A stretch of DNA of 48,049 bases from a virus (taxonomy: Duplodnaviria; Caudoviricetes): the IMG/VR virus record IMGVR_UViG_3300037484_000103, positions 1-48,049 of that record. The stretch is one strand, 5' to 3'. The position numbers and the translations under genes were made by a program. The notes under the pieces are model-generated. The model searched no databases and was not told the origin of the DNA. It saw only the letters and a program-made list of their open reading frames with translations. Positions 229 through 48,049 of this stretch are shown here, piece by piece (positions within the stretch are counted from its first letter, which is position 1; every line of letters begins with the position of its first letter).

Positions 229-550
229 CTATTACAATGGCTCGCTCTTCAAGAAGTCGAGCCCATTCCAACTGAATAAATGTTTTCCCTAGGCCGGTAT
301 CCAGGAATATGGCGGCCCGTCCCTTGTGACAAGCCCATTTAACAATATCTCGCTGAAATGGATATAGCTTAGGGTTGATTGCGAAATCAGTAATCTCAAT
401 CCCGGTAAAATCCTGCCGAATCTTTTTAGAGGAAAGGAATTGCTGATAGTCTATTAAAGACTCGGGCCGAGTCCCGTGCCCCGGCGAAGGGGATGTGCCA
501 GCGTAGGCGCACACGGAATCTCGGCCCGAATCATCTACGCTGTTTTTCAA
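1..550 (-). CDS. N-terminal part of SF2/SNF2-like helicase-DNA methyltransferase fusion (continues across the circular junction to 46008)
   Basis: GGAGGT RBS then TTG at 550; reads MKNSVDD...LYPFQRDIV...IFLDTGLGKT (Q motif, Walker A) and joins in frame with MSEIKEDC of ORF 46008..47975. Confidence 0.85.
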   Translation of the reverse strand, partial: MKNSVDDSGRDSVCAYAGTSPSPGHGTRPESLIDYQQFLSSKKIRQDFTGIEITDFAINPKLYPFQRDIVKWACHKGRAAIFLDTGLGKTFIQLEWARLLEERAIVIAPLSVTRQTIREGKKIGIEIRYIRSMSEIKEDCQIYTCNYEMIEALDFSQFGAVVLDESSILKSIGSVTRRYLTEQ

Positions 551-573
551 TCCTACCTCCTCGGGGTTCGCCG
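459..573 (-). ncRNA. C4/CI-like antisense RNA element B with its upstream targets
   Basis: 13-bp basal stem (459..471 / 520..532) and two hairpin loops, CTACGCTG (499..506) and TTCGCCG (482..488), which are exact complements of upstream CAGCGTAG (535..542) and CGGCGAA (567..573). Confidence 0.65.
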
Positions 574-587
574 CACCCGACCCCTGT

Positions 588-616
588 ACATTACTACGGA
601 AGCCGGTTCGTGTCAA
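588..616 (-). promoter_or_regulatory. Sigma70-type promoter for the helicase/replication operon
   Basis: TTGACA (616..611) - 17 nt - TAATGT (593..588). Confidence 0.75.
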
Positions 617-4952: not shown

Positions 4953-5024
4953 AGGCGGCGGCCGGCATCGAACCAGCGTCCCCGGTGTACAAAACCGGTA
5001 TGCTGCCCACTACACCACACCGCC
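4953..5024 (-). tRNA. tRNA-Thr(UGU), no encoded CCA
   Basis: Acceptor GGCGGTG/CGCCGCC; anticodon arm CCGGT-TTTGTAC-ACCGG; T arm GCTGG-TTCGATG-CCGGC. Confidence 0.75.

Positions 5025-10620: not shown

Positions 10621-10624
<4 letters not shown>
10406..10624 (-). CDS. Small Zn-finger protein
   Basis: CSNPGC...CLVC. Confidence 0.5.
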
Positions 10625-11156
<532 letters not shown>

Positions 11157-11160
<4 letters not shown>

Positions 11161-11309
11161 GCTTTCCCTCCTGTCCTCGCCTCGCGGCGGGCGTACAGCT
11201 CGGCCATGACCCGCGCCATGCAGTCCCCACAGACGCCATGAGACACGCCGGCCTGGAGCGGGTACTTTGTGCCCAAGTCCTTCTGGCAGTAGCAGCACAC
11301 GATTTTCAA
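11157..11309 (-). CDS. Small Zn-finger protein, first gene of the early operon
   Basis: GGAGG RBS and TTG; C.YC...SHG.C.DC. Confidence 0.65.
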
Positions 11310-11328
11310 GATGCCCTCCTGAAACACA

Positions 11329-11440
11329 AGGGGCGAGTCACCTGCTGTAGAAGTGGGACTCCACCGCCGAAGTAACGGTGTGCCCAGCAACAGATTGACT
11401 CGCCCCTGGCGTCTACTTCGTTTGTCATAGCAGCTTCTAC
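11329..11440 (-). ncRNA. C4/CI-like antisense RNA element A with its upstream targets
   Basis: 12-bp basal stem (11329..11340 / 11396..11407); apical loop TACTTCG (11368..11374) complements CGAAGTA (11414..11420); bulge CTTCTAC (11347..11353) complements GTAGAAG (11434..11440). Confidence 0.7.
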
Positions 11441-11455
11441 CCTGCTCATGCTCTA

Positions 11456-11484
11456 ACTATAGACCCCCCGCGTGGAAAACGCAA
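11456..11484 (-). promoter_or_regulatory. Sigma70-type early promoter
   Basis: TTGCGT (11484..11479) - 17 nt - TATAGT (11461..11456). Confidence 0.7.
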
Positions 11485-11492
11485 GGATTATC

Positions 11493-11750
11493 TTAGGTAT
11501 TCTCGTCTCTTTTTTTGGTAAGTTTCCTGTACCACGATATGGCGGTATTTTTCGTCACGCCCAAAGCCTCGCACAAGTCCCCGTGGTTCGTCTTCGGCCA
11601 AAACTCCACCAACGCCGCCTGCTGTTCCAGCGTCAACGGGCAGGGCCGCTGATACCGGCCCGCAGGCCGGCAGGATTCCAACCTTGCCAGTAAGTCGGCA
11701 GAGTACTTGATACTCACCGCGGCGGGGGCTTTCAATTCGCGGCGAGGCAT
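11493..11750 (-). CDS. Small HTH-like protein
   Basis: DLCEALGVTKNTAISWY helix-turn-helix-like segment; AGGAG RBS. Confidence 0.55.
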   Translation of the reverse strand: MPRRELKAPAAVSIKYSADLLARLESCRPAGRYQRPCPLTLEQQAALVEFWPKTNHGDLCEALGVTKNTAISWYRKLTKKRDENT

Positions 11751-12523
11751 ACATACTCCTTCGGCACAACATACTTCAACGGCATGAGCCTGGGCCGGAT
11801 GTATACCTCCCCGGAGTTGTCGATTTCCACGTAGATGAATCCAAAGTCATAGTACAGGCCGCGCAGTTTGCGGGCGTAGATGGATCGCCCCCGTTCGGGG
11901 TCAGGCAGGAACAGGCAAGGAATCGACACCCCGCGCCGGCCAGCCAGTCGGAGCTCAAAGAAGTAGTGGGTATGCGCTCTCGCCAAAACATCCGCAGGCT
12001 TGAAATCTTCAAGAAGCGATTGGAGCATTTCCCGGATAATCTCTTTCCCGAGTTGCGCCCCCTGGCCGGTGGGAACATCGGAGCGCCCCTGGACATGGCG
12101 AATGTTGAAGCGGACTTCCCATTTCGGTCCTTGCACCTTCAACCGCAGGGTATCACGGATTTCCGCATCCAGCCGGCGGGCTACCAGATTTTCGATGCTC
12201 AAAGAGGAAACGGTGTGAAGCGGCGTACCATAGCAAACGTATTTTTCTTTCGCCCGCACGATGCTCAGTGCTTGCGCGGCGGCCTCAGCCTGCTCTTCTA
12301 CATCTGTCGTCCAGAGGCCGAGCGTTTCTTTCGTTCCCGGGCCGTCTATCAAATCTCCGTCAAATACGGCAAAGTCTACAGGGCCGATAGTCTTTATCTC
12401 TGCGGCCCACCAATCCCACGCCTGCCTCTGGATTCCCTTGCAGCGCCCTTGCCAAAACTCCGGGGGCGTCAATCCCAAAACGTGCCCGGTATGTGGATCG
12501 GCAGCAAGAATGCCTTTTGTCAA
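11732..12523 (-). CDS. Calcineurin-like metallophosphoesterase
   Basis: ADPHTG, GDLID, GT..H, RH and AHTH motifs; GGAGG RBS and TTG. Confidence 0.8.
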   Translation of the reverse strand: MTKGILAADPHTGHVLGLTPPEFWQGRCKGIQRQAWDWWAAEIKTIGPVDFAVFDGDLIDGPGTKETLGLWTTDVEEQAEAAAQALSIVRAKEKYVCYGTPLHTVSSLSIENLVARRLDAEIRDTLRLKVQGPKWEVRFNIRHVQGRSDVPTGQGAQLGKEIIREMLQSLLEDFKPADVLARAHTHYFFELRLAGRRGVSIPCLFLPDPERGRSIYARKLRGLYYDFGFIYVEIDNSGEVYIRPRLMPLKYVVPKEYVCLAAN

Positions 12524-14621: not shown

Positions 14622-14984
14622 CTATCCGAGAAAAAACACCTTGACTTTATAGTAATAGTCCTCGGTGTCAATCGTATTCACACCACCAGACCCGTTGGAT
14701 TGATAGAATCCGACCGCCCCGGTATGCACTTCGATGTTATTCAAATCTACTTGCCTGACTTGCGCCCCGACTACGCCGGCAGAATAGTCATGCACCAAAA
14801 ACGCATTCGCATCCGTGCCATCCGTGCTGCACCAGACTTGCACCAATAGGCTCGCCAGCGGCGCGTTGAGGTTGTGGGTGACGTTGCTGTCCGTGTTCAG
14901 CGTGGTGTCGCTGCCAAGGTGGACGTTGGTCCAGTCAGAGCGGTTGATCCATCCGGTATCGTATCGGTATTGCCAAGAGTTCAA
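14622..14984 (-). CDS. Tail fibre/spike C-terminal-type domain
   Basis: YDTGW...VTHNL...V.V..S and YYKV.V pattern typical of fibre tips. Confidence 0.55.
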   Translation of the reverse strand: MNSWQYRYDTGWINRSDWTNVHLGSDTTLNTDSNVTHNLNAPLASLLVQVWCSTDGTDANAFLVHDYSAGVVGAQVRQVDLNNIEVHTGAVGFYQSNGSGGVNTIDTEDYYYKVKVFFLG

Positions 14985-33105: not shown

Positions 33106-34037
33106 TACTTCACGTCCTGCGTCTGCGCCCATTCCTCGTAAGTCTGGTAGGGCGTGATCTGGTTACGCCCCTCGGCGTCCCGCGATATCCGAAACTGCGG
33201 CTCGAAGCCTTCGACCTGGCCGACAAGCCTACATCGGCAATTTATTACTTCCTCCGGCGGACCCTCTATCCCGGGCCCGCTTACCAGGCCCCAGGGCGTA
33301 TGAAACATGCCGTTCTCATCCGCAACTTCACCGTCCATCGCGGCATGTGTTTCACGGGTACGGTCATCCAGGGTTGCATCCCAAATCTGTTGTACTTCGA
33401 TGCCCATTTCTGCCGCACGGTCATAAGCAGCTTTCTGCGCTTCTACGGATAAGCGATGGGCCTCGGTATGTGCAATCCGCTCCGCTTCCCACTTCTTTTT
33501 ATCGACTACTGCCGCTACGCGTTGCGCCATCTTCGGATAGCTTTCGCCCTGGACCATGCCCTGTACGATGGACCGCTCGATATCTGTTAGGGCTCCGGCC
33601 TTGGCCCGTGTCCATATCTGATTCAACGTCAGGCCGCTGTACGGCTTCTGTATCGCTATCTTTATCAGGTCGGGTGGCAGCAGGCCCCAGCGGCCCTCTA
33701 CCTTCGCCCCCTCCATGATCTGCCAGCCCATCCGGAAGTAGCTCGCGTGATAAGCTTCTTCGGCCAGCTTCTTTACGATATGGCCATTCGTGCGGAATGT
33801 CTCCTGGAAGTCCCGTACCAAGTCCGCGTGGAGCGCCTGAAGGCGGTTGTACTTCGTCATCTCCGCATAGGTCAGGCTGCCCTCTTTGGCGTACTTCTCA
33901 TACAGGCGCCAAAGTTTCAGCTTTGTTACCTCCAGCGCCTTGTTATAGTTACGCCGCAGCTCGCGCACCGCTCCCGCAGACATTGCCGCAACAGGGGCGA
34001 GTGCTTCATCGACCTGCGGCGGTTTCTTCCTCACCAA
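33105..34037 (-). CDS. Minor head protein (SPP1 gp7 / Mu gpF-like)
   Basis: AERIA.TE; W.ATLD.RTR.TH..MDG; INCRC. Confidence 0.9.
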   Translation of the reverse strand: MVRKKPPQVDEALAPVAAMSAGAVRELRRNYNKALEVTKLKLWRLYEKYAKEGSLTYAEMTKYNRLQALHADLVRDFQETFRTNGHIVKKLAEEAYHASYFRMGWQIMEGAKVEGRWGLLPPDLIKIAIQKPYSGLTLNQIWTRAKAGALTDIERSIVQGMVQGESYPKMAQRVAAVVDKKKWEAERIAHTEAHRLSVEAQKAAYDRAAEMGIEVQQIWDATLDDRTRETHAAMDGEVADENGMFHTPWGLVSGPGIEGPPEEVINCRCRLVGQVEGFEPQFRISRDAEGRNQITPYQTYEEWAQTQDVK

Positions 34038-38286: not shown

Positions 38287-38357
38287 GGCCGCTCCAGGGA
38301 TTCGAACCCCGATGAACCGGGTACAAGCCGGCTATGCTGCCATTACATCAGGGCGGC
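38287..38357 (-). tRNA. tRNA-Thr(UGU), one acceptor mismatch, no CCA
   Basis: GCCGCCC/GAGCGGC; GCCGG-CTTGTAC-CCGGT; CGGGG-TTCGAAT-CCCTG. Confidence 0.7.
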
Positions 38358-38442: not shown

Positions 38443-38515
38443 CTGTGTGGGCTGGATTCGAACCAGCGCGCTTCGGCTTAACAGGCCGCTGCTCTACCCG
38501 CTGAGCTACCGCACA
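38443..38515 (-). tRNA. tRNA-Asn(GUU), one acceptor mismatch, no CCA
   Basis: TGTGCGG/CCACACA-G; D arm GCTC/GAGC; CGGC-CTGTTAA-GCCG; GCTGG-TTCGAAT-CCAGC. Confidence 0.75.
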
Positions 38516-39837: not shown

Positions 39838-40526
39838 GCCCTCCCCCTTTCCTGCATCATCCGGTACTTGAGTTCCGCCGTCTCCCAGTCCTCCGGCTCG
39901 TCGATGTCTACGGCCTCGGCTGCCGGGATAATAAGCCCTGCCTTGTTGTCCATCATAAAGGTGTGATTGACAATCAGCGGAGTCCTGCGCGCCCAGAAGA
40001 ATTGACCGGCGATGAAGTAAGAAGCCGGCCATAAGTTGCTCGGCTCCTCATCGTATTGCGGAAAGCGGCTTACCATCTTCTCCCCGCGAGGGAAAAGTGC
40101 CCTCTCCACCGCCGGCCCGCGATACACCGGGAACACCACGTCAAAGCCGCCATGCTTTAGCTTCTTGAATCCCTCGACCACCGTCTCCACCCGCATGAAT
40201 GGAGCACAGGCGTACATCATACAAACATAGTCGTATTGCAGGCCCTCGACACCCTGCGCCCGCAGTACGTCGATTACCACGTCCACCATGGGAACGTGGT
40301 CTTGACTCAACTCTGCGCTACGCTTGTAACAGGAGCATTTCAGGTGTGAGGCGTGGCCGCTGATTCGGCTATCGTCTGTGCTTACCACCACTATGTCAAA
40401 CAAGCCGCTGTTATGCGCTACTTCGATGCTGTAGTCGATTATTGGCTTGCCCATGAAGGGGCGCATGTTTTTGTGGGGGATGCGCCGGCTGCCACCACGG
40501 GCGGGAATGATGCAAATGCTATGCAT
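39834..40526 (-). CDS. CMP-nonulosonic acid synthetase (PseF/NeuA-like cytidylyltransferase)
   Basis: IIPARGGS.RIP.KN...F.GKP.I; VSTDD; AGQF.W; DID..EDW..AE. Confidence 0.9.
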   Translation of the reverse strand: MHSICIIPARGGSRRIPHKNMRPFMGKPIIDYSIEVAHNSGLFDIVVVSTDDSRISGHASHLKCSCYKRSAELSQDHVPMVDVVIDVLRAQGVEGLQYDYVCMMYACAPFMRVETVVEGFKKLKHGGFDVVFPVYRGPAVERALFPRGEKMVSRFPQYDEEPSNLWPASYFIAGQFFWARRTPLIVNHTFMMDNKAGLIIPAAEAVDIDEPEDWETAELKYRMMQERGRA

Positions 40527-41142
40527 CGCCGTATTCCTTCGGCGTCTGCCCGCGTATCCTTGTGCGCTTGCCACTGGACGATATCACGGTTGCGTCGCCT
40601 TCCTCGGTTACCCACGTCACGTCAGAGAAGTTGAAGTACAGGCTCGGCCAGTATACGCCCTCCCAGTATTTCCGCGCCGGGATGCGGCAACTGAATGCGC
40701 CCCACTTGGCAATCAGCCGCTCCCAGAACCGCACCGCCGGAGAACAGGTGTAGCATTCCCCCCAGATGTTGGCAAGATTGAGCTGCTTGAAAGCGCGATG
40801 CAGAAACAACTCCACCGCCTCCATACCATAACCCTTGCCGCGATACTCGGGGGCGATGAGGATGCTGATTTCCCCGAGGCGGTTTTCGTGCTGAATGTTC
40901 TCGATGCCGCCGTAACCCACGAGGTACTTGTCCTCGTCGATGAGAAGATCCCCCGCCACATGCCCCTTGAGTTCGAGTCCCCAATACCGTGTCGTCCCCC
41001 GCCGGTCGCAGATTACCGAGCGGTACCAGTCCTCTTGCTGCTCCCGAGTCAGTGGGAAGGGGGTGCGTAGCGTCTCCAGCGAGGCGTTGCGCCACTGGCG
41101 GATGGGCTCCATGTCTGCGAGTTCAAGCGGGCGCAGAGTCAT
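40519..41142 (-). CDS. GNAT N-acyltransferase (RimJ/PseH-like)
   Basis: LRPLE..D...I..WRN; EISI.I.PEYRGKGYG.EA. Confidence 0.8.
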   Translation of the reverse strand: MTLRPLELADMEPIRQWRNASLETLRTPFPLTREQQEDWYRSVICDRRGTTRYWGLELKGHVAGDLLIDEDKYLVGYGGIENIQHENRLGEISILIAPEYRGKGYGMEAVELFLHRAFKQLNLANIWGECYTCSPAVRFWERLIAKWGAFSCRIPARKYWEGVYWPSLYFNFSDVTWVTEEGDATVISSSGKRTRIRGQTPKEYGDA

Positions 41143-41642
41143 AGAATGGGCCTCAGATTCTCACAACAAAGCTTTTTGCTCAGTACTCTTTTCCCTTGTC
41201 GTGCAATTATACCCGCTATTTCCTGTCTCATAGGATAACGGTCGCTTTCTGTCTTTATGCCACATTGATAAATGGCCTGAGTAACTTGCAAATCCTTTTC
41301 TCTTATCATTTGGAAAATAGGCTTGTATTTGCTATTGAAACCAGCCATCAGTTTCTTAAACTCCCAGTCTGGTAAGCGGGAATGCTTAAAACTCTTTCCA
41401 TCGGCCACGGGAATCATCTCCGTAGCATCAATCCACATGTGTTTTTTCTTATACGAGGAAATCTCTGGGAAATCATAAAACAGGATGTTTTTCAGGGTAG
41501 ACCGTTTCACTCTCCCGGTACCCTTGTTTGGCCACTCCCCGTTTATCTTTATAAGCCAACTAACAAGATGTTCAAGGGTTAGTGAATCCATCCCAATTAT
41601 ATCCATGATTCCTTTTATATGATCCAAATAGTGACCATTCAT
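41139..41642 (-). CDS. Hypothetical low-GC protein inserted in the sugar cassette
   Basis: GGAGGT RBS; ATGA overlap; AT-rich. Confidence 0.55.
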   Translation of the reverse strand: MNGHYLDHIKGIMDIIGMDSLTLEHLVSWLIKINGEWPNKGTGRVKRSTLKNILFYDFPEISSYKKKHMWIDATEMIPVADGKSFKHSRLPDWEFKKLMAGFNSKYKPIFQMIREKDLQVTQAIYQCGIKTESDRYPMRQEIAGIIARQGKRVLSKKLCCENLRPIL

Positions 41643-41650
41643 ATTACCTC

Positions 41651-42292
41651 CTAGAGAATTACGGAAAGTTCCTCCGGCGTGCTGGCGTGCGGCCCAGCGT
41701 CCAGCCCCGTGCTATCACTGAGCTTGAAATGGCGCTCAAAATAAAGCGGCTGGTACTCCCCGAACAGCCGCAGGTCCGGCGAGTGGTCGCTTATCCCTAC
41801 GCTCAGATTGTAGCCGAATAGCGTTTCATAAGCCGTCTGGTTTGCCGGGTACTCCGGGATGCAGTAAAGGAAGCGTAGGTCATACCCCGGGAACATCTCC
41901 CGCAGCAGCGGCGGATAAGCCACATCGCCAACGCTCACGTATATCGGCAGCTCCCGGGGCATGTTCCGCAACAGCATGTACAGATATGGCCGGCAGGCCA
42001 CCTTGAGCGCCGTGGGATGGTAGTCTAACAGGTAGTTAAGCGAAGGGTAGTCGAACACGCTGGCGAAGGTCTGGTAGCCATAAGTCAGGTCGGCATACTT
42101 CACGGCGTAGTCGTACACCTCATGGTCCAGCGGCGGCACTGGGGCTGGCACCTTCGTGAAGAGCTGCCACTTGATGTATACCTCGTGGTGGTGGCCGTCC
42201 ACCGCCGCCAAGGCCTCTATCATCCGGCGCACTTCGGCCTTGTCGTTACGGCAAGTTTCGCCAGAACCAAAGTCTAATATGATTTTTGACAT
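41651..42292 (-). CDS. NeuB/PseI-family nonulosonic acid synthase (TIM barrel only)
   Basis: K.QLF; FASVFD..S; KVA; P...S.G; LYC..EYP; GISDH; ERHF.L...G.D...S.P.EL. Confidence 0.8.
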   Translation of the reverse strand: MSKIILDFGSGETCRNDKAEVRRMIEALAAVDGHHHEVYIKWQLFTKVPAPVPPLDHEVYDYAVKYADLTYGYQTFASVFDYPSLNYLLDYHPTALKVACRPYLYMLLRNMPRELPIYVSVGDVAYPPLLREMFPGYDLRFLYCIPEYPANQTAYETLFGYNLSVGISDHSPDLRLFGEYQPLYFERHFKLSDSTGLDAGPHASTPEELSVIL

Positions 42293-42654
42293 ATGTTTCC
42301 CTGATAGGGGAATTCTCTTCTATGTTGTTTCGCCAAGTTGTCGAGATAATAACTTACAAGGGATTGCTCCACATCAGGCGGCCATTTCGATACAGTCATA
42401 AATCCACCCATGTTTCTGTCTATCGCTATTGTCAAAACAACATGACTCCGTACCCCGCATCGATATGCTGCGAAGCGTAATAGTTCATTACACCAAACGC
42501 CAACCCTCTTTGCTTTCCCGGCATCCCCCGCAAAATATAGCGGTTGTTTTCGTTTTTCAATCCGCATGATTACCAGGAAAAGCGATAGCAGGCTATGGAC
42601 AATCCAGCGGATGATAATCAGCGTAAGTTTTGCTTTCAACTTCTTTTTCTTCAT
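42274..42654 (-). CDS. Hypothetical membrane protein, low GC
   Basis: Basic N-terminus plus TM helix. Confidence 0.45.
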   Translation of the reverse strand: MKKKKLKAKLTLIIIRWIVHSLLSLFLVIMRIEKRKQPLYFAGDAGKAKRVGVWCNELLRFAAYRCGVRSHVVLTIAIDRNMGGFMTVSKWPPDVEQSLVSYYLDNLAKQHRREFPYQGNICQKSY

Positions 42655-43048
42655 TTCTCCCCCATCTCCACAAGGTTTTCACCACCGCCCCGTAACTAAG
42701 TCCCAGCGTCTCGGCTATCTGCTTCCGACTCATGCCGCTGTCCAGTAAGGATTGAATCGCATGGCTGCGGTTATGCCTTCGCTCCACGGCTCTCTCCCTC
42801 GCTCTGGCCGCCATGAGCCTTTGCGTCAACAGCACCTCGTCTCTGGCCCGGACGACAGCCCGCCGCACTTCTCTCGCCTTGCTGACTCTCTCTTCCCGGT
42901 GGATCTCTTTTATCAGTGAATGGTTCGGAGCAACGAAAATATCCCGTGGAGGTTTGCGGCCAGCTCTCGTTTTGATTTCCGCTATCTTCGACATTTCCGT
43001 CTCAGTCCACCGTATCACAAGTCCCTCCGCATATGCAACCTCGGCCAA
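42593..43048 (-). CDS. HTH DNA-binding protein
   Basis: C-terminal GMSRKQIAETLGLSYGAV. Confidence 0.6.
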   Translation of the reverse strand: MAEVAYAEGLVIRWTETEMSKIAEIKTRAGRKPPRDIFVAPNHSLIKEIHREERVSKAREVRRAVVRARDEVLLTQRLMAARARERAVERRHNRSHAIQSLLDSGMSRKQIAETLGLSYGAVVKTLWRWGRNEEKEVESKTYADYHPLDCP

Positions 43049-46007: not shown

Positions 46008-48049
46008 CTAATCAAACAGTCTCAGTTCCCTGAAATGTGTCTCCGCATATTGGCAATTCTCTACGGCAATTCGGAAATAAGATTCCTTCAACTCGATACC
46101 AATTCCTTTCCTGCCGAACCGGATTGACTGATAGACTTCAGAACCTATTCCCATGAATGGCGTGAGAATCGTCTCCCCGGGATTGCTATACAATTTTATG
46201 CATCGCTCAATCGTCCCGAGTTGTAGCGGGCAGATATGCTTTTCGTCGTCTTTGTCTCTGGCTGATGAATAGCGGAGCACATCGGATTCACTGATTCCGA
46301 ACCAGATACCATGCGCCCAGGCGATCCATGTTTCGTTATCCATTTCCTTGTTTTTCACCGGCTCAATCGGTACTTGATTTTCCCCCGCTTTCTGGAATAT
46401 CAAAACCTGATCTACGATTGCCGGGCGAATATCGGCCGCATCCCTTCGGAGTTGGGCAAACAACAGCCCCTTACTATGCGTCCGGATCGCCTGCGCCTGC
46501 GGATTCTTCTGTACAAACGCACGCCCGCAGAATGTCCAGCCCTCGGACATGTGCGCCCGGATAACTTCTCCCGGGAAATCCTTCATCCCGATATATCCAT
46601 CCTTGACAGCCAGGGCGGGAATATCGCTTGTATGAACGCAAGACAGCCTTCCCGGTTTCGTGACCCGCAGCACTTCCCGAATAATGAACCCGTAATGAAT
46701 AAAAAACTCTCCCCAACCCTTGCTGTTTCCTAAATCATTCTCGCTATTAGTGTAGGTATACAGATCGGCGAACGGTGGGGAGTATACTGATAGGTCAATC
46801 GAATCGTTTTCTATCTTGGAAAGTTCTCGGCATGAATCCCCGTGTATTGCCGTGAAGTTATTTCCTTCTGCGGGTTCGAGATATGTCTCTTCTTTCGCCT
46901 TCCCGTTTCCGTTCAAGTGCAACTCCTTGCGCTCATAAATAGAAATATTGCGTAACAGCTCGGATACCATTAGCTTTGCTACTCGTTCTTTTCGCATGAC
47001 ATTCTGATAGATTTCCTGCTCGGCTTCGGATATGACTATGTAGATGTTCACGGGATGCTTTTGGCCGTAGCGCCACTGGCGGCGGATGCACTGATAATAG
47101 GCTTCCCATGAATCCGATAGTCCAAAGAAAATCGCATTATGGGAGTTCTGGAAGTTCATTCCATGGCCGCAGATTTTCGGCTTACTGACCAAGATTCTGT
47201 ATTTCCTGTCCTGAAAATCCTCGAGGTCTTTTATCTTCTGTTCCTGCGGATCATCTCCCTTTACTTCCCTCGAATCTTTTGCTTCGGCTGACAGGGCCGT
47301 GGTCTCTGATTGCAGTCCGCCCCATAGAATCCACTGGCCCGGGTCTTTCGATAGCAATTCCGATACGATAGACAGCCGACCCCGGATGGTGGCCCTGCGT
47401 ACTTTAGTCCTGTCCTGTATGCCTTTCAGTTTGGAATGGAATAATTCTCCAGAGGGAATATAGTCAGACTTCACGATCATCGGAATAATGTTTAACGGGG
47501 GAAGGATGTACCCCTCGTCACTATAGCCAAGTTCCGAAGGCCGGGTCATGGCAATCGCCCAGGATGCCATCCATTCGTAGAACGGTCCCCGGGCGTGATT
47601 TTTCAATCTCCATTCCTGGCCCTCTTTATTCCCGTGCTTCTTTCGGATAATTGTCCCGTCCTCATATTCATGCTCATCCTGCTTGTTTGCATGAATGAAA
47701 AACATGGCCAGCATTTCAACGGACTTACAAACCCCTAAAAACTCCGCATGGTTTCCTATTTCGCTTTGATCGTTCGGCGCAGGCGTAGCGGTGCAACATA
47801 GGCGATATTTCGTGTTCGCGCATTGTTCTGTGAGATAGCGCCGGGTCACGCTTCCGATTGATTTCAGGATAGACGATTCATCAAGCACTACGGCTCCGAA
47901 TTGTGAGAAGTCAAGGGTCTCGATCATTTCGTAATTGCACGTATAGATTTGGCAATCCTCTTTTATTTCAGACATGCTCCGAATGTAGCGGATTTCAATT
48001 CCTATTTTCTTACCTTCTCTAATTGTTTGCCGAGTAACAGATAGCGGGG
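46008..48049 (-). CDS. SF2 helicase - N4/N6 DNA methyltransferase fusion (C-terminal part; full gene about 787 aa from TTG 550)
   Basis: LDESS, TATP, G.N.Q and R.WRYGQ helicase motifs; then SPPF and PFMGIGS (beta-class MTase). Confidence 0.9.
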   Translation of the reverse strand, partial: PLSVTRQTIREGKKIGIEIRYIRSMSEIKEDCQIYTCNYEMIETLDFSQFGAVVLDESSILKSIGSVTRRYLTEQCANTKYRLCCTATPAPNDQSEIGNHAEFLGVCKSVEMLAMFFIHANKQDEHEYEDGTIIRKKHGNKEGQEWRLKNHARGPFYEWMASWAIAMTRPSELGYSDEGYILPPLNIIPMIVKSDYIPSGELFHSKLKGIQDRTKVRRATIRGRLSIVSELLSKDPGQWILWGGLQSETTALSAEAKDSREVKGDDPQEQKIKDLEDFQDRKYRILVSKPKICGHGMNFQNSHNAIFFGLSDSWEAYYQCIRRQWRYGQKHPVNIYIVISEAEQEIYQNVMRKERVAKLMVSELLRNISIYERKELHLNGNGKAKEETYLEPAEGNNFTAIHGDSCRELSKIENDSIDLSVYSPPFADLYTYTNSENDLGNSKGWGEFFIHYGFIIREVLRVTKPGRLSCVHTSDIPALAVKDGYIGMKDFPGEVIRAHMSEGWTFCGRAFVQKNPQAQAIRTHSKGLLFAQLRRDAADIRPAIVDQVLIFQKAGENQVPIEPVKNKEMDNETWIAWAHGIWFGISESDVLRYSSARDKDDEKHICPLQLGTIERCIKLYSNPGETILTPFMGIGSEVYQSIRFGRKGIGIELKESYFRIAVENCQYAETHFRELRLFD
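47822..48049. repeat. Terminal direct repeat / circular overlap (copy 2)
   Basis: See 1..228. Confidence 0.95.

Follow-up and report, generated by a model that had tools for sequence, protein, structure and literature searches.

The P4 CI RNA has a 79-nt shape made up of a bulge plus a loop, and the eta frame runs through cI. The C4 RNA has a second target pair (a2/b2) located downstream, at the icd ribosome-binding site, and RNase P processes it to ~77 nt with a GGW start. In the CopA/CopT system of plasmid R1, the antisense RNA blocks a leader ORF, tap, whose translation opens the buried repA ribosome-binding site.

C4 of P1 and P7 (immI) is described as a structured RNA of about 77-79 nt within the leader of its own operon, with two exposed segments, one of which lies near a ribosome-binding site (PMC5320573; PMC2864571). 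The upstream target of c4-a1b1 is displayed in a hairpin loop (PMC2864571 supplement). Both P1 C4 and P4 CI are reported to act in trans (PMC8546580, PMC4825925). P4 CI RNA is processed from the early-operon leader, pairs with upstream seqA and brings about premature termination without a repressor protein. The Gifsy-1 RNA IsrK, which is structurally homologous to P4 SeqA, acts in trans to activate its own mRNA; IsrK is a phage leader RNA that is small RNA and mRNA at once, with coupled small ORFs (PMC4825925). The table of PMC2864571 places two-loop antisense immunity RNAs in Proteobacteria and in the phages of these bacteria. In literature searches aimed at the known two-loop systems, no description of the element presented here was found.

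The window (the whole stretch of DNA analysed, 48,049 nt) is a near-complete tailed-phage genome from an IMG/VR-type record, with a completeness of 94%. The phage is uncultured, and its genome is best represented in sediment metagenomes. The two ends of the window overlap (1-228 vs 47822-48049, 228 bp, 97% identical, 6 mismatches, within the helicase gene), which indicates that the genome is circular or terminally redundant; two strains are possibly merged in the record. All recognised genes are on the minus strand. PHROGs assigned structural genes, Bet/RecT-like, exonuclease and helicase-methylase functions among 80 ORFs, and no transposase was recognised among them. Three tRNA genes are present on the minus strand (4953-5024, 38287-38357 and 38443-38515), two with the same anticodon-loop letters, TTGTAC. 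Ahead of the packaging genes, a GNAT acetyltransferase and a weak NeuB-like ORF are found near each other (40519-42292, minus strand).

The sequence-only reading had described this phage as having no visible repressor. This is correct as far as CI-type repressors and integrases are concerned, neither of which was recognised among the 80 ORFs by PHROGs or by Pfam on 30 ORFs and NCBIfam on 24 ORFs, and no partition or integration gene was recognised in the genome. However, three small HTH proteins exist, one of them (11493-11750) directly before the first cassette described below, so a protein regulator is possible. This 85-aa protein, which may regulate the operon that follows, has 3 relatives at 78-83% identity. 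An HTH profile run against two phyla, 401 genomes each, gave one weak match only.

The features of the first cassette (cassette A) and its surroundings, all on the minus strand, are as follows.

11493..11750, minus: 85-aa weak HTH protein just upstream of promoter A (Pfam HTH_36 E 0.011, below cut-off)
11456..11484, minus: promoter-like site A; -35 TTGCGT 11484-11479, 17 nt, -10 TATAGT 11461-11456; predicted +1 near 11450
11426..11450, minus: 5' hairpin with target 1 in its loop; ATG 11449 pairs with ATG 11428; fold -8.2 kcal/mol in the nascent leader
11434..11440, minus: target 1, GTAGAAG, 12 to 6 nt before ATG 11428; unpaired probability 0.87-1.0
11414..11420, minus: target 2, CGAAGTA, starting at nucleotide 9 of the frame from ATG 11428; the register is identical in cassette B
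11306..11449, minus: leader ORF running through the hairpin; 47 codons and stop from a predicted leaderless ATG at 11449
11329..11407, minus: 79-nt bulged hairpin, candidate antisense RNA A; z -6.0; top match of the architecture scans
11368..11374, minus: apical loop TACTTCG, exact complement of target 2
11347..11353, minus: 3'-side bulge CTTCTA(C), exact complement of target 1; fully open in the fold
11322..11329, minus: T-rich tail TTGTGTTT after the hairpin, exactly after which two relatives (X1 and X2) switch to other sequence
11304..11324, minus: hairpin over the first gene's start, hiding most of the Shine-Dalgarno AGGAGG (11320-11315) and the TTG; -6.5 to -7.2 kcal/mol
11157..11309, minus: first gene, a 50-aa protein with two CxxC pairs, at the operon head

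The promoter, both leader segments and the 79-nt bulged hairpin noticed in the sequence-only reading are thus all present on the minus strand in the layout it described. Promoter A is a weak site of the sigma-70 type with 8/12 consensus letters; it is absent from the list of a standard promoter scan, and the relaxed rule that it passes is passed by 23 sites genome-wide. Two other promoter-like sites on the minus strand, 42560-42639 and 14644-14671, have 9-10/12 consensus letters and no loop-target cassette. The HTH gene 42593-43048 ends in the site at 42639.

The leader ORF overlaps the TTG of the first gene at 11309 with its TGA (TTGA), as had been read from the sequence. What the earlier reading did not contain is a second in-frame ATG at 11428, which sits between target 1 and target 2 and provides an alternative start for a 40-codon ORF. 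Nor did it mention the 5' hairpin presenting target 1, the T-rich tail or the hairpin that covers the ribosome-binding site of the first gene. No homologue of the leader ORF protein was found. We infer that leader ORF A is translated. In operon A, the first gene is followed by Imm5-like, Bet/RecT-like and exonuclease genes; the second gene (10621-11160, minus strand) encodes an Imm5-like protein with an alanine-rich repeat.

Folding of 11406-11328 gave -45.9 kcal/mol (z -6.0), and 0/200 shuffles were equally stable. The bulge and the apical loop are exact complements of the two leader segments, as had been claimed, with the qualification that the predicted apical loop consists of ACTTC only (5 nt). 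Its outer T and G pair as a closing G-U with an unpaired probability of about 0.2, so the seventh pair with target 2 needs this G-U to open. When the hairpin was held fixed and the 49-nt leader was dinucleotide-shuffled, 7-nt complements to both loop regions in nested order arose in 272 of 200,000 cases (0.14%). Cassette A is a real, non-random element. The following points count against an antisense role: each target-loop duplex has only 7 bp (-6.7 to -9.3 kcal/mol, computed), and the match between the apical loop and the start of the first gene is limited to 4 nt. This genome has no exact downstream target pair, and a search that tolerated G-U likewise gave no 7+7 pair 3' of the hairpin at the first gene. 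The tail TTGTGTTT is possibly a terminator tail and was not listed by the terminator scan.

A second cassette (cassette B) with the same layout lies before the helicase-methylase gene. It has different loops, which are matched by targets of its own.

457..616, minus: cassette B; promoter TTGACA-17-TAATGT; the helicase-methylase gene follows in a fused frame
573-567, minus: target 1, CGGCGAA, in the loop of a 5' hairpin
TTG 550, minus: start, with a strong Shine-Dalgarno sequence before the TTG
542-535, minus: target 2, CAGCGTAG, beginning at nucleotide 9 of the frame, as in A
531-460, minus: branched hairpin with loops CTACGC(TG) and TTCGCC(G)

A scan for the nested order target-target-loop-loop placed A first and B second of 11 matches. 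A strict architecture scan, whose thresholds were chosen after A and B had been seen, found only A and B in the window and 0 matches in 2,021,980 strand-bases of 131/131 viral loci. With a covariance model built from A alone, B was the best non-self match (19.5 bits, E 0.0049, a rough value). In the A-B alignment, which is fitted to the model, 4 of the 17 scored basal-stem pairs change on both sides, 2 change on one side and 1 breaks. Kinship between A and B is moderately indicated, because by plain sequence alignment B is only seventh among A's best matches in the window. When the fit of the loops was computed over 80 start sites, the own leader start was best in each instance, with -17.0 vs next -13.0 kcal/mol for A and -24.0 vs next -16.5 kcal/mol for B; no other gene start stood out among the 80 as a second target. 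Cross-matching between the two codes extends to at most 5 nt.

Within 450-550 (minus strand), the helicase-methylase gene lacks the start codon of its homologues, having ATA there, and the cassette B leader adds about 32 residues. Most of the 8 homologues read start about 32 residues later than the cassette B frame, at the position of the window's ATA. The frame of cassette B is therefore probably translated from 550 through its hairpin into the helicase-methylase.

The exact pair GTAGAAG (33446) and CGAAGTA (33399) also occurs, in order and 47 nt apart, at 33393-33446 (minus strand) inside the minor head gene. The leader-like AAGCTGCT..ATGAC stands between the two, and target 2 is again found 9 nt into an in-frame ATG. 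Each 7-mer occurs 5 times on the minus strand; a pair of this kind arises in 30/3000 codon-resampled genomes (about 1%), and it does not lie at an annotated start. This pair is probably due to chance.

Relatives of cassette A came from sequencing-run contigs only, in 4 runs of 4 studies (X1, X2, X3 and X11). The soil contig X3 aligns over 11315-11900 with 77 substitutions and is about 87% identical nearby. Among the differences listed (40 of 147), the first stands at 11451, one base before the predicted +1, and, judging from the order of these differences, X3 appears to have no change in the transcribed part, 11315-11450. If there is indeed no substitution in this part, the chance of such a distribution is 3e-10. 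By hand reading, the -35 of the X3 promoter is spared among the differences listed and the -10 stays TAnnnT. X1 and X2 are identical upstream and carry other sequence right after the T-rich tail. The 151-nt wastewater contig X11 (depth 2) matches 11332-11462 without a difference; since it takes in the -10 box and is flagged as probably DNA, it carries no information about expression. No RNA dataset is listed for the phage.

The relatives differ in what follows the leader. In a hand reading of a 30-letter loose end, the leader of X3 ends on a TGA that shares letters with the ATG of another first gene; the opening letters of this gene match the apical loop over 7 nt, with one G-U. In X2, read by hand from a loose end of the same length, the leader frame stays open into a gene that has its own Shine-Dalgarno sequence and a 6-nt apical-loop match. 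According to the hand reading of relatives, the bulge of A can also pair over 5 nt with the Shine-Dalgarno sequence.

Covariation of loops and targets in related phages had been proposed as a check on the sequence-only reading. A and B, whose kinship is moderate (E about 0.005), do differ while keeping matching targets, but no relative with changed loops and targets was found by pattern, protein-anchored or RNA-model searches; loop-target covariation is seen between A and B only. Pattern scans of viral contigs (31, 1 and 21 loci) and of genome contigs (28 loci) returned nothing that resembles A by blastn or inspection, and nor did any of the metagenome-contig matches listed (120 of about 280). 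Scans anchored on the Bet/RecT-like, phosphoesterase and HTH proteins yielded no locus. Neither the 25 Imm5-like loci nor the 53 helicase loci, of which 40 were covered by RNA models, showed a comparable cassette. There was no match of the RNA model in 150 genomes and nothing relevant in annotated phages and plasmids. One locus (L057, 2501-2573) has a strong intergenic hairpin after a phage gene, with a basal stem as in A and without matching leader targets.

We favour, with a probability of roughly 0.55, the reading in which the hairpin RNA is a small antisense RNA that accumulates, binds both leader-start sites on new transcripts of its own operon and shuts the operon off in trans. As long as no free RNA exists, the operon would be read, with ribosomes on the leader ORF melting the long hairpin as well as the one that covers the ribosome-binding site of the first gene. 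Stable hairpin RNA would then build up, either as a terminated leader of ~125 nt or cut to ~80 nt. Pairing of its bulge to target 1, in the 5' loop, and of its apical loop to target 2 would block initiation at ATG 11428. The first gene would lose its coupled translation, and transcription would stop at the T-rich tail or by polarity, giving more RNA. The outcome would be delayed self-repression of the early recombination genes (A) and the helicase operon (B), serving either as a timer in lytic growth or in an immune carrier state; a possible by-product is immunity to phages that share the code. RNA-based control of early genes, as proposed from the sequence, gains support from the shuffle statistics, cassette B and the apparent conservation in X3, although the known RNA families are unmatched.

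The best surviving alternative, unlikely as we judge it, is a folding switch or attenuator in cis, in which target 2 pairs with the future apical loop during synthesis and ribosome traffic on the leader decides between this and the long hairpin with termination at the T-rich tail, without any free RNA. The minimum-energy folds of 84-108-nt prefixes indeed pair CGAAGT with ACTTCG, the long hairpin replacing this pairing from about 114 nt. The position of TTGTGTTT directly 3' of the hairpin, the divergence of X1 and X2 right after it and the absence of exact downstream targets also agree with such a switch. However, the prefix folds leave the pairing of target 1 with the bulge unused, and target 1 is exposed in a hairpin loop in A, as are the c4-a1b1 targets (PMC2864571 supplement). 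Two cassettes with distinct codes fit diffusing RNAs better. When both target-loop pairings are forced in cis, the energy is -46.2 vs -67.0 kcal/mol for the hairpin fold (a cost of about 21), and target 2 stands just 7 nt from the foot of the 31-bp stem, a linker that by estimate cannot reach the top of the stem. Because cis pairing is costly and the linker appears too short, action in trans on new transcripts is favoured.

Trans activation, in which binding of the RNA would keep the nascent leader from an inactive fold so that the operon is read, is rather improbable. IsrK, the P4 SeqA structural homologue, provides a precedent for activation of an RNA's own mRNA in trans (PMC4825925), and the nascent cis pairing does cover target 2 beside the start codon. 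Both targets, however, lie in the ribosome footprint of the leader start, where binding should block initiation, and an incoming phage needs its early operons on before any RNA exists.

A palindrome acting at the DNA level (REP-like, or a single-stranded-DNA hairpin) that happens to lie in the leader, without an RNA role, is very improbable. Palindromes with A's basal stem between GTAG and CTAC flanks occur at three metagenome loci, which were selected by stem (L074 897-986, L081 3001-3090 and L139 301-390); we take these palindromes to be REP-like. The resemblance of the basal stem to these palindromes, together with a GTAG a few nt before both hairpins (A and B), would fit a DNA element. The stems of the cassettes contain several G-U pairs, though, in A as in B the targets keep their place around a start codon, the copy number is just two, no transposase was recognised and the RNA-model scores of the three loci are E 0.06-0.08. 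The weakest candidate, a stable leader or terminator hairpin of the ordinary kind whose 7-nt complements are due to chance, can draw on the shortness of the 7-mers, the five occurrences of each target on the strand and the weak promoter, but is barely credible against 0.14% of shuffles, a layout repeated independently in B and 0 matches in 2.0 million control strand-bases.

Self-repression by an antisense leader RNA would have consequences beyond this phage. If true, a sequence-unrelated two-loop design exists in an uncultured phage group, and the design either arose again or is far older than models detect. Phages classed as lytic because they lack a repressor gene may use RNA to govern their life cycle. 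The cassette measures about 130 nt and comes in two natural codes. As a tentative extension, A and B may form an RNA family of their own, without sequence relationship to C4/CI, whose members target their own leaders and combine leader mRNA, terminator and antisense repressor in a single stretch. With two copies keyed differently, the phage would need no repressor protein: the RNAs would time the recombination and helicase operons or keep the phage in a non-integrated carrier state, and the cassette would be portable before exchangeable first genes.

In comparison with described RNAs, the sequence-only reading had assigned the architecture of C4 and CI to cassette A. The layout is borne out by the leader shuffles, cassette B and the apparent X3 conservation, whereas membership in those families is contradicted by the lack of an Rfam match, a downstream pair, icd and ant. 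The Rfam C4 search put forward with that reading gave no match: the genome has no covariance-model match to the C4 antisense RNA (RF01695) at E <= 10. There is likewise no covariance-model match to sRNA-Xcc1 (RF02221). Rfam against the genome at E <= 1 returned three tRNAs only, and at E <= 10 nothing relevant over A or B.

The proposed function is that of P1 C4 (PMC5320573, PMC8546580, PMC8201110, PMC2864571). Like C4, A is 79 nt long, which fits ~77 nt, lies in the leader of its own operon and has two exposed segments complementary to upstream targets of the a1/b1 type. Target 1 is shown in a hairpin loop, and different cassettes carry different codes. Unlike C4, A is one unbranched bulged hairpin without C4's three stems, which carry a tetraloop, the a' loop and the b' loop, and its stem starts with GGGG, not GGW; B is branched, but both of its loops are target complements. 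A has no exact downstream pair, although the partial sites in X3 and X2 recall that of C4, and no icd or ant family is found among the ORFs downstream of A. The targets of A and B instead stand on either side of a start codon whose ORF extends through the RNA, and the two cassettes head recombination and helicase operons directly.

P4 CI resembles A in the upstream seqA-like target within its own leader. It differs in that A has no exact seqC-like downstream pair (partial in relatives) and no sequence-family match, and in that P4 is a satellite phage, whereas A and B are two cassettes in two operons of a self-sufficient tailed phage. IsrK and sRNA-Xcc1 (RF02221) serve in phage leaders as small RNA and mRNA together, a double role that A and B are predicted to share; neither matches A or B in sequence. 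IsrK activates, whereas the targets of A and B overlap the start site. In CopA/CopT, as proposed for A, an antisense RNA blocks a leader ORF whose translation frees a ribosome-binding site hidden further downstream. CopA, transcribed from the opposite strand, has full complementarity, whereas A lies on the same strand and offers 2 x 7 nt. On these comparisons, A and B likely work like P1 C4 and P4 CI, yet stand outside those families, as a variant of the two-loop antisense switch.
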